64,000 bases of DNA from Dictyostelium discoideum. Its lineage: Eukaryota. The DNA is taken from contig CM000155.2 of NCBI GenBank assembly GCA_000004695.1, forward strand, positions 3,072,001 through 3,136,000, read 5' to 3'. Numbering within the stretch: position 1 is the stretch's first letter; every line of letters starts with the position of its first letter. Under the pieces are notes generated by a model. It saw only the letters and a program-made list of their open reading frames with translations. It was not told the origin of the DNA and ran no database searches. This document shows positions 41,521-44,500 of the stretch, piece after piece. A program made the translations under genes and the position numbers.

Positions 41521-44500
41521 TTAATGTTTTCTTAGTTTGTGATAGTAAAGTCTTATTGACATTTTAAAATGTGGGGGTAATAACGTTAAAATAAATAAAA
41601 TTAAAATAATAAAGAAAACTACAGAACCAATTACAATACCAGCTATTATAGATTTTGATAAAGATGATGAAGATGATGTACATATTGAATTATCAGAATT
41701 TGAAGAAGCTGGATTTGAATTTAATAATACAGAAAAGTCTGGATCAATTTCAATTTTTGATTTATATAAAGGTATTTGAATAGCGACAAATGATAATTTC
41801 TTACTTGGGGCTGAACCACTTAATTTTTCATTCTGATTGAAATCCGTTAAGACTTTATTACTAATTGTACGTACTATTCCATTATCTATAATTGCCATTT
41901 TTGAATATTTTGAAAGTAAAGTAAATTCACCAACTTGAAGTTCTAAATAATTTGAATTATCATTTAAACCAAATTGTTCACTTGAACAAATATCATCAGT
42001 TTTAGAAGTACCAACCGAACTTTTAAATATTAATTCTAATGTATTTAAAGGCGTTGAGAATGGATAATGATCTATTGATATTGTATATTTTAAACTTGAT
42101 GGATTTATAGTAAATTTTTCACCTGCAAATGTAATTTCAGTTTCTTTTTCAAACCATTCTGAAATCACTGTTATGGTTGATACTTGATTAGCACCTTTTT
42201 TAATTTTTGTATTATAAATTACATTTGTACTTGAAATGGTTGTAGAAATCCAATCATTTTCTTTAAAATAATGGGTATTTTCAATAGAATTATCAATATT
42301 AATTTCACGTATTGCAACAATAGAAACCATTGTATTTAATGAAATAGCACCATCAACAAGGAAAGTATTAATTGAATCAGGTGTTGTTGTACTCATTAAA
42401 GGTTGTGGAGTTTTAACAGTTTTTGATAAACAATCAAGTCCACTATAAGGTGAGATACAACGACATCCTACATTTTCAACACATACACCTCTATCTAATC
42501 CACCACAATTGTTTAAACATACTACATCATTTGGTGTTGAGGAAGAAGATGAATAATCTAATGGTGAAACTATAACTCCTATAGTATTCGATTCAACCTT
42601 ATTAATTTCGTCTTTTACAGTAATATATAATCTTTCAGAATTAAATGGTATTACTTTAATAATTATCATTATGTTTGAGCTATAAACTATACTATTTTCT
42701 ACCTGACTATTAAAGTTATCAATGATTGAAATAGTTGATTTAAATCCAAAATGTTTACCTATTATAGTTATGAATGAACCTTCACTAGAGATTGGTGAGA
42801 TGCTATCAATTGAATTTGATTCCTTTAACATTAAAAGTTTATTAGTATTTAAAGAATAACTTTCACCACTACTGTCTGAAGTTGATATTAAATTTTCAAT
42901 AGATGGTAAAGTAATAGTTTGATTGGTTGAAATATAACTTTTTACACCATTTTTATCCAAATCATAAGCTGAATAACCATTGAAATTGAATGAAGTATCA
43001 ACAATTCCAAAAACTGATACTATAAAACCTTTACTTGAACTGAACCCATATGGAACAGAACAAAATGCTTCATAATGAGCTTTAATTGTTAAATTGGTAG
43101 ATGGATCAATTACGTTTTCTTTTAATTCAGTATTACATTCAATATTTGTTAAAGATGATAATGTTATATCATTTATATAATATTCTAAAAATACAATTGG
43201 TTTATGAGTATCATATAATAATCCGATATTATCAGAAGTATTAAATATAAATGATATATTTCTATTATGTGTATTGATATCTAAATTTTCAACCGATGGT
43301 TTAAAATAGTCTAGTGATGGTGGAGTTATATCACTTTCGTCATTATTAGATATAACGGTAAAATTGAAATACTTCATAGTTGTACTATCCAAATTATAGA
43401 TTGGTGATAATGGAGAATATCTAATTTCTATTATATTATCCTGATATTTATAATTATCGTCCATTATTTGAGATTTGTGACCCGAGTTATCAATTAAAAT
43501 TATATTTTCAAATGTATAGGTTTGTCCAGCAGTTGTTGGTTTCACCTTAAATATAATATTATATTGGCCTGTAAATTTATCACCACTTATTAAACCATTT
43601 TCAGGTGTAAAATTAAGCTCTAATGGTTGAGGATCTTTATCACCAATAATTCTAAAATATGCAGATTTCAAACCATTAATTCTATCTTCAATTGTAACTG
43701 TCCAACCTAATTCTACATCTTGATCTTGACCTGAAATATTAAATATATTACCATTAATACCACTAACATCTATTATTGAATTGAAATAAGTTATATTTTT
43801 AATAATTGGTGGCATTTCATCACAATCTGTTGAAGTTACACTTAAATTTGCAGCATTACCAAATAATGAATAAAAATAATCCATTGTATAACTAACACTA
43901 TCTACTTTAATAATATATGGTAAACTACCAGAACATTTACGAGGTGGAATTACAAATTGAATTTTAAAAACATTTTCATTTTTATCTTTTAAATATTGTC
44001 CAACATCAATATCCATTGGATTAATTAATGAATCTCCATAAATTGGATCTAATAAATAAAATGAGATTGGTATATCGTATGCTGAATCAATATAATCGAA
44101 ATATAAAGTTTGTAAAAATCCATTATCTACATTTACATTTTGAGCTTCAAATTCAAATTTAGTAACTGATAAACTTTGACTTCCACCATTAATACTATTA
44201 TTAAATGCATTTATATATGGTATTTCTTTCAAAATTAAAAATGAATCTTGATCTAAATAATTTTGATTAATTTCATTAAATAATCCTTCTGTACTCATAA
44301 TTACAATTGGTGTTTTTTCAAAGGTAACATTTATTATCTTTTCATAATAACCATTATAAATTGTTCCATTGACTAAATCCAATTCAGTTATAATGTTACC
44401 ACAATACTCCATCCATGCTAAACCAGCGCCATTCGAAAATAAACTAACTTTAAGAATTGCTCTTTTACCATCCCCACCCCTTGGGTAATAAATTTCAATA

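Follow-up and report, generated by a model that had tools for sequence, protein, structure and literature searches.

The 64,000-nucleotide stretch of DNA analysed here (the window, to which all positions refer) belongs to chromosome 6 of Dictyostelium discoideum AX4 and is very AT-rich, with a GC content of about 20-26%. It carries a tandem array of related minus-strand genes, and the subject of this work is the uneven similarity between two of them, A and its upstream paralog B, which are accompanied by a decayed third copy, C (Table 1). Gene A is DDB_G0293720, the large minus-strand open reading frame (ORF) giving a 100% match to this AX4 protein (3.6-Mb contig). The copies A and B lie about 5.3 kb apart in the same orientation, and tblastn gave equivalent four-exon structures for the two. 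For gene B, residues 1-1427 of a 93%-identical ortholog were all covered by tblastn without stops or frameshifts; an AX4 protein for B was not recovered in the protein searches, in which the sole AX4 entry was A. Two minus-strand 'ORFs' with long poly-K ends, at 45315..45839 and 46145..46435, were considered as separate genes and rejected, as they represent exon 2 of gene A read through into the poly(A/T) intron, and intergenic poly(A).

Table 1. Positions in the window of the genes of the array and of the segments compared between them
Feature	Position	Strand	Remarks
Gene A	41521..46128	(-)	predicted ComC-like type I membrane protein, 1415 amino acids
Gene A exons	46128-46081, 46001-45441, 45275-44958, 44841-41524 + stop codon	(-)	from tblastn
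Gene A large-exon ORF	41521..44826	(-)	
Gene B	46866..51504	(-)	upstream tandem paralog, B-type; intact reading
Gene B exons (approximate)	51504-51388, 51215-50664, 50589-50245, 50165-46869	(-)	from tblastn
Gene B large-exon ORF	46866..50288	(-)	
Decayed third copy C	39926..41235	(-)	downstream of A; A-type, 5'-truncated, frameshifted, EGF region internally deleted
Block 1 in A (homogenised tract)	43775..44233	(-)	437/459 = 95.2% identical to B; linker + middle beta-sandwich domain
Block 1 in B	49120..49578	(-)	partner of A 43775-44233, from 14-copy alignment mapping; repeat family D5
Spacer in A separating block 1 from block 2 (divergent)	43711..43774	(-)	A-type, with indels; B partner about 49068-49119
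Block 2 in A	43450..43700	(-)	B partner 48807-49057; conserved DUF7035 core
3' patchwork in A	41587..42207	(-)	C-terminal half of ComC_SSD + stalk; homogenised segments
3' patchwork in B	46945..47567	(-)	partner of A 41587-42207, from coordinate mapping; repeat families D2, D3

Both products are, as judged from their Pfam matches, ComC-like surface proteins of the family defined by ComC_SSD (PF22933), that is, the ComC and ComC-like proteins with EGF domains. Gene A matched DUF7743, DUF7035, DUF7034, the EGF-like DUF7949 and ComC_SSD, all above the gathering cut-offs; the architecture of B matches that of A, with DUF7035, DUF7034, DUF7949 and ComC_SSD likewise above them. The bit scores, against cut-offs of 24-27, were 61.7 for ComC_SSD, 93.3 for DUF7035, 79.5 for DUF7034 and 38.5 for DUF7949 in A, and 46.6, 96.6, 73.7 and 36.3, respectively, in B. 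Read by eye from the sequence, without a predictor, the N-terminus of B begins MKFLTLFIFLNLLFIELV and there is a hydrophobic stretch, IAGIVIGSVVFFIILILFILTLL, near the C-terminus; these are candidates for a signal peptide and for the single transmembrane segment of a type I surface protein. Homologs of this kind occur across Dictyostelium, Tieghemostelium and Polysphondylium, and the family members outside the array are only about 27-30% identical to A and B, which also lack the LRR_ComC and TIG matches of the ComC-type neighbour at the D. dimigraforme locus. An AlphaFold2 model of residues 90-500 of the A ORF gave three beta-sandwich domains at a mean pLDDT of 73.6, so that the modelled part of A would form a string of Ig-like beta-sandwiches resembling the ectodomains of adhesion proteins and receptors. 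A fold search with this model provided no functional lead, returning only generic tandem Ig-like matches with a template modelling (TM) score of about 0.15-0.19.

Identities between A and B, and the mapping of coordinates from one to the other, were taken from a protein-guided codon alignment and a nucleotide alignment of 14 array copies. An earlier reading of this DNA (the original prediction) had described the two genes as strongly diverged over most of their length, and this is the case: outside the two regions that are treated below as homogenised the large exon was 67.7% identical (1427/2108, with a further 380 gap columns), and the protein identity of the upstream exons was 42-56%. It had also pointed to two internal blocks of about 95% identity. 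The first of these, A 43800-44240, is real, lies on the minus strand and was 94.6% identical (417/441) to B 49145-49585; it is the region that, with adjusted ends, we call block 1. A repeat finder run independently matched 43758-44057 to 49103-49402 at 93%, and the longest exact run shared by A and B was 113 bp, from A 44123. The second, A 43450-43700 (block 2), is likewise a homologous match, to B 48807-49057, at an identity of 87.6% (220/251) rather than about 95%; here the repeat finder paired 43448-43721 with 48805-49078 at 87%. The peptide that had been quoted as the product of both blocks lies wholly inside block 1, and block 2 instead encodes the conserved start of DUF7035. In the AlphaFold2 model block 1 comprises a low-confidence linker and the middle beta-sandwich, between DUF7743 and DUF7035. 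A third and larger similar region, A 41587-42207, which was 90.6% identical (560/618) to B 46945-47567, was absent from the original prediction.

For comparison, syntenic arrays were extracted from five assemblies of PMC12745789. Two of these represent isolates of D. discoideum, with the locus tags ACTFIR and ACTFIW, a third represents an isolate labelled cf. discoideum (ACTFIY), and the others are from D. citrinum and D. dimigraforme. The isolates are abbreviated FIR, FIW and FIY and the two other species CIT and DIM, with a number for the copy in the array. In AX4 and all five assemblies the array lies downstream of the same glypican-like gene, and its copy number varies, with one copy in D. 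citrinum, two in FIY, two in D. dimigraforme, two plus the decayed remnant in AX4, three in FIR and at least four in FIW. Two of the FIW copies are fused in one gene model of 2830 amino acids, and the D. citrinum copy is adjoined by a retroelement integrase fragment (L004 14917-16061). The A-type copy of FIY has a TAG nonsense codon at L003 12146..12148 (equivalent to A 44031-44029), inside block 1, where all other copies have TCA; it is nonetheless annotated as a protein of 1413 amino acids. This copy is either a pseudogene, which could serve as a conversion donor, or the product of an assembly error.

Region-wise neighbour-joining trees with Jukes-Cantor distances (NJ/JC) and bootstrap were constructed from these copies. 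In the 5', middle and pre-SSD parts of the gene AX4_A grouped with FIR_2, FIW_2, FIW_3, FIY_2 and DIM_2 (100% bootstrap) and AX4_B with FIR_1, FIW_1, FIY_1, CIT_1 and DIM_1 (94-100%). The existence of separate A- and B-clades outside the blocks indicates that the duplication is older than the split between D. discoideum and D. dimigraforme. In block 1 the topology was a different one: DIM_1 grouped with DIM_2 (100%), all A and B copies of the discoideum clade came together against CIT and DIM (100%), and FIY_1 grouped with FIY_2 (80%). The same switch was seen for A 42200-41901, in the 3' region, with the D. dimigraforme pair at 100% and the discoideum A and B copies together at 95%. Block 1 is thus an internal patch, both flanks of which keep the A-type and B-type orthology across species with 100% bootstrap. 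The window A 43850-43711, which contains the spacer between the two blocks, returned the A-type clade at 100%, the D. dimigraforme ortholog being included at 82%. For block 2 the A and B clades remained separate (98-99%); the equivalent segment was homogenised in D. dimigraforme (99% bootstrap; permutation p=0.02).

The distribution of fixed differences between A-type and B-type copies gave a similar picture. Among 472 such differences in total, a single one (at 44124) fell between A 44233 and 43775, and they were dense on either side, from 44338 to 44234 and from 43774 to 43712. The divergent stretch that the original prediction had placed between its two blocks was clearly visible, with 22 fixed differences in A 43711..43774 (indel columns included), and block 2 had 17, from 43636 to 43517. 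Homogenisation of the main tract and of the 3' region took place independently in three lineages (the discoideum clade, the cf. discoideum isolate and D. dimigraforme), and the ends of the tracts agree to within about 20-40 bp.

A and B are tandem duplicates of long standing, and these results make it very probable that interlocus gene conversion, a non-reciprocal homologous recombination from copy to copy, keeps two parts of the large exon alike while the remainder diverges freely. The converted parts are an internal tract of about 460 bp (A 43775-44233 / B 49120-49578) and a patchy 3' region of about 620 bp (A 41587-42207 / B 46945-47567). The original prediction had treated unequal crossing-over, in which a reciprocal exchange between misaligned copies makes chimeric genes, as an equal alternative. 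Unequal exchange, duplication or deletion must occur at this locus, since the copy number of the array ranges from one to at least four, and crossing-over does explain that variation. However, a single event would leave one breakpoint and a change in copy number, whereas block 1 is a 460-bp patch that is type-specific on both sides and occupies the same position in the same gene order in every genome. Moreover, the AX4-private changes described below are interleaved with type-specific differences, as would be expected for short patchy transfers. Unequal crossing-over is therefore an improbable source of the two-sided internal patch.

The second alternative is that purifying selection alone is responsible, block 1 being a slowly evolving domain in which the paralogs never diverged, perhaps also because an embedded element restricts the nucleotide sequence. 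No other part of the protein is indeed as constrained as that encoded by block 1, with a nonsynonymous divergence (dN) of 0.075-0.11 between species compared to 0.13-0.24 in its flanks, and 0.038 between A and B of AX4. The synonymous sites, however, are also alike, as had been claimed: the synonymous divergence (dS) of the AX4 pair was 0.167 in block 1 (about 11 synonymous differences), against 0.48 in the 5' part and 0.51 in the middle, and it was 0.184 in the 3' patchwork. Sliding-window Nei-Gojobori estimates confirmed that dS is far from uniform along the genes, with values of 0.04-0.25 in block 1 and 0.5-1.1 in the diverged parts. In the FIY and DIM pairs the dS of block 1 was 0.087 and 0.061, respectively. 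Between species the same block gave 0.58 (B-CIT), 0.48 (A-CIT) and 0.29-0.45 (A or B against DIM). For the flanking single-copy genes (window 52039-53715, 54899-55582 and 37284-39374) the values were 0.29-0.44 for AX4-CIT and 0.30-0.60 for AX4-DIM. Thus block 1 is as divergent at synonymous sites between species as its neighbours are (0.29-0.58 and 0.29-0.60) and is similar only within genomes (0.06-0.17), which rules out purifying selection by itself. The trees, which change from orthology to clustering by genome in block 1, and the derived states that are private to one genome and common to both its paralogs, which occur only inside the homogenised regions, speak against it too. An embedded RNA or antisense gene as the source of constraint was not supported, as a scan of 39-52 kb with Rfam gave no match and block 1 contained no opposite-strand ORF of at least 60 amino acids. 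Purifying selection alone is accordingly very unlikely for block 1, where conversion is strongly supported by these sequence comparisons; it is adequate for block 2 in AX4.

A GENECONV-style permutation test of our own implementation (1444 polymorphic columns, 2000 permutations) identified two globally significant fragments in the AX4 pair, 44215..43785 and 42207..41587 (p<=0.0005 each). Essentially the same two were found in the FIR, FIW, FIY and DIM pairs, with p<=0.0005 for the 3' region in all five genomes. D. dimigraforme had additional tracts at 42554..42445 and 43621..43455. In controls that paired copies of different type from different species the test did not recover block 1. Among codons for identical residues in the AX4 pair, synonymous differences were found at 9% in block 1 compared to 22% outside (p=0.001), at 8% in the 3' block (p=0.003) and at 13% in block 2 (p=0.19). 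A maximal-segment test on synonymous codons of the pair alone, with penalties of 2-4, was uninformative and was replaced, as its best segment extended over nearly all of the 3' two-thirds of the gene. The conversion that the original prediction had proposed for both of its blocks therefore holds for the first, on the evidence of the permutation test, the two-sided patch, the trees and dS. It does not for the second, which in AX4 gave no significant signal that would set it apart from chance or rate heterogeneity (permutation p=0.61; Fisher p=0.19), shows the two clades apart and is best regarded as a conserved domain core without a demonstrable conversion tract. The decayed copy, which had been put forward as a further check on the shared block, could not serve as one. 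Its tblastn fragments are spread over several frames, and it is alignable only to A 43272-42650 and 42378-41524; it starts downstream of both blocks, with nothing to align upstream of A 43272. What is kept of C includes the 3' region, in which A and B were about equally close to it; in the middle its identity was 84-94% to A and 63-67% to B.

Two remaining alternatives are weaker still. If the array had been duplicated independently in each lineage, followed by fast parallel divergence outside the blocks, the similarity of the blocks within species would, taken by itself, be accounted for. However, outside the blocks A groups with copy 2 of D. dimigraforme (100% bootstrap) and B with its copy 1 and with D. 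citrinum (94-100% over both clades), the gene order next to the glypican-like gene is conserved, and it is not credible that separate duplicates should have diverged in parallel towards identical sequences, so that this explanation has very little to recommend it. A collapsed or duplicated repeat in the AX4 reference, which had also been named as a possible cause of the identity, can be dismissed, since 22 of the 459 positions aligned between the AX4 copies of block 1 are different and the same mosaic recurs in five independently sequenced long-read assemblies.

Several points weigh against gene conversion as we have described it, or limit what can be said of it. Either copy may have been the donor, and the approximately 5% divergence of block 1 could reflect either one old event with subsequent decay or many short events in equilibrium. 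The permutation test is partly sensitive to rate heterogeneity, and the cross-species controls did yield small 'significant' fragments at the extreme 3' tail; part of the 3' signal may consequently be conservation rather than conversion. Evidence from the AX4 pair taken by itself is weak to moderate, the strength of the case coming from the comparative assemblies, and the strong evidence consists of home-made NJ/JC trees and the permutation test rather than the published GENECONV, RDP or GARD programs. Finally, the GC content of third codon positions was not raised in the converted tracts (in block 1, 0.053 for A and 0.099 for B, compared to 0.07-0.14 elsewhere), so that the GC bias which frequently, but not necessarily, accompanies conversion is not visible.

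The original prediction had called the conversion recent, which appears to be an overstatement. The dS of the flanking genes was 0.05-0.085 between AX4 and FIR or FIW and 0.10-0.18 between AX4 and FIY, and the block 1 dS of 0.167 between A and B of AX4 exceeds the first of these ranges. In addition, within AX4, FIR and FIW the B copies (87% bootstrap) and the A copies (59%) are still weakly separable in the block 1 tree. Together these observations indicate that the main event was not very recent, and the sequence comparisons place the main homogenisation of AX4 roughly at the base of the discoideum clade, when D. citrinum had already split off and AX4 had yet to separate from FIR and FIW. The divergence of FIR, FIW and FIY from AX4 was far above the usual diversity within a species, which fits divergent tropical or cryptic lineages; FIR, FIW and FIY are described in such terms in PMC12745789.

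A few later and smaller exchanges specific to AX4 took place inside block 1. A and B had three states in common that are private to AX4: one at 44193, one at 44035, where GGT has become GGA by a synonymous change, and one at 43899. All of them are in block 1, with none elsewhere in the gene, against an expectation of 0.04 coincident changes (p about 7.5e-6). For FIY there were five such shared private states in block 1 and nine in the 3' region, the rest of the gene having none, and control pairings of paralogs across genomes gave zero or one. The shared private sites were interleaved with retained type-specific differences, which indicates that the transfers were short and patchy.

In the proposed mechanism, a double-strand break in one copy would be repaired with its neighbour, some 5.3 kb away, as the template, either by synthesis-dependent strand annealing or by repair of a short heteroduplex. 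The tracts would be confined to segments in which protein-level constraint holds identity high enough for recombination, and they would end at indel-rich flanks of less than 70% identity because the heteroduplex is rejected or not extended there, or because selection removes the converted variants. Between species dN/dS was about 0.13 in block 1, about 0.47 in the 5' part and about 0.38 in the middle. Constraint on the domain encoded by block 1 may thus maintain a high identity, with exact runs of up to 113 bp, which in turn would permit homologous repair from the neighbour. It is also conceivable, though we consider it unlikely, that homogenisation is actively maintained by selection and is not just a by-product of residual similarity. 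In three or more lineages, and in all copies of the array, the linker and middle beta-sandwich have been re-homogenised with near-identical borders, whereas evolution is fast in both flanks (dN/dS between paralogs about 0.8).

Other features of the window were noted in passing. The glypican-like gene upstream of the array (52055..53681, minus strand) has internal repeats offset by about 420 bp with 68-74% identity, which were seen as shifted blastn matches to every ortholog. An ORF of 2014 amino acids at 9583..15627 (minus strand) consists almost wholly of Q/N/P-rich low-complexity runs and accounts for the strong skews seen at 10-16 kb, both in GC (+0.4 to +0.6) and in AT (about -0.45). Genes of the MAPEG family form a tandem cluster at about 30000..32760, with four genes at L003 20941-24351 and cross-matches of 67-75% identity; it is another tandem family that could show conversion.

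Interlocus conversion of the kind proposed for A and B has been described as long-lasting concerted evolution in mammalian gene pairs (PMC2720389), and for the GOT1 paralogs of Tigriopus (PMC3728101), a CEACAM1 paralog in ruminants (PMC7042247) and paralogs in Caenorhabditis (PMC3966223). The present case resembles these in that the paralogs are closer than orthologs in defined stretches while the flanks give the true age of the duplication, in tracts of hundreds of bp between nearby copies of the same orientation, in persistence across speciation and in islands of divergence beside the tracts. It differs in the gene pair and the group of organisms, both of them new, in the extremely AT-rich genome without a visible GC-biased signature at A and B, and in a main tract that coincides with one structural domain and recurs in three or more lineages with borders that hardly differ. 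Our literature search found no paper naming DDB_G0293720, and among the Dictyostelium papers listed by searches on gene conversion none dealt with this ComC-like family.

Within Dictyostelium the nearest comparison is the allorecognition locus tgrB1/tgrC1 (PMC12745789). The introduction of that paper names gene conversion, together with duplication and recombination, as one of the sources of new variants of polymorphic self/non-self recognition proteins in various organisms. Both systems are tandem, duplicated and fast-evolving surface-protein genes in the same species group. However, the exchange between A and B homogenises a domain rather than diversifying alleles, and the two proteins belong to another family and gave no TIG match in Pfam. 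Furthermore, the dS of A and B between isolates (0.05-0.19) is close to that of flanking genes of housekeeping type (0.05-0.11). A hypervariable locus of the tgr kind was rejected for this reason, the flanking genes having a comparable isolate dS; the whole syntenic region of 10-15 kb was about 91-92% identical between isolates.

The mechanism is an ordinary textbook one in a previously undescribed instance, and its general significance is modest. In practical terms, trees or dS values of whole genes from this array will be misleading unless A 43775-44233 and 41587-42207 are masked. The array documents concerted evolution at the scale of a domain where the GC content of the genome is about 22% and no GC-biased signature is visible, and it shows that dictyostelids have active ectopic recombination between copies separated by about 5 kb. 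Maintenance of the homogenisation by selection, if it occurs, would be compatible with block 1 encoding a shared interface that has to co-evolve (for instance with a ligand or partner common to the copies, or for heteromeric contact among members of the array), and the variable flanking domains would then carry the specificity of each copy. One repeatedly homogenised domain set among fast-diverging neighbours may reflect a division into constant and variable parts in this uncharacterised family of surface proteins.

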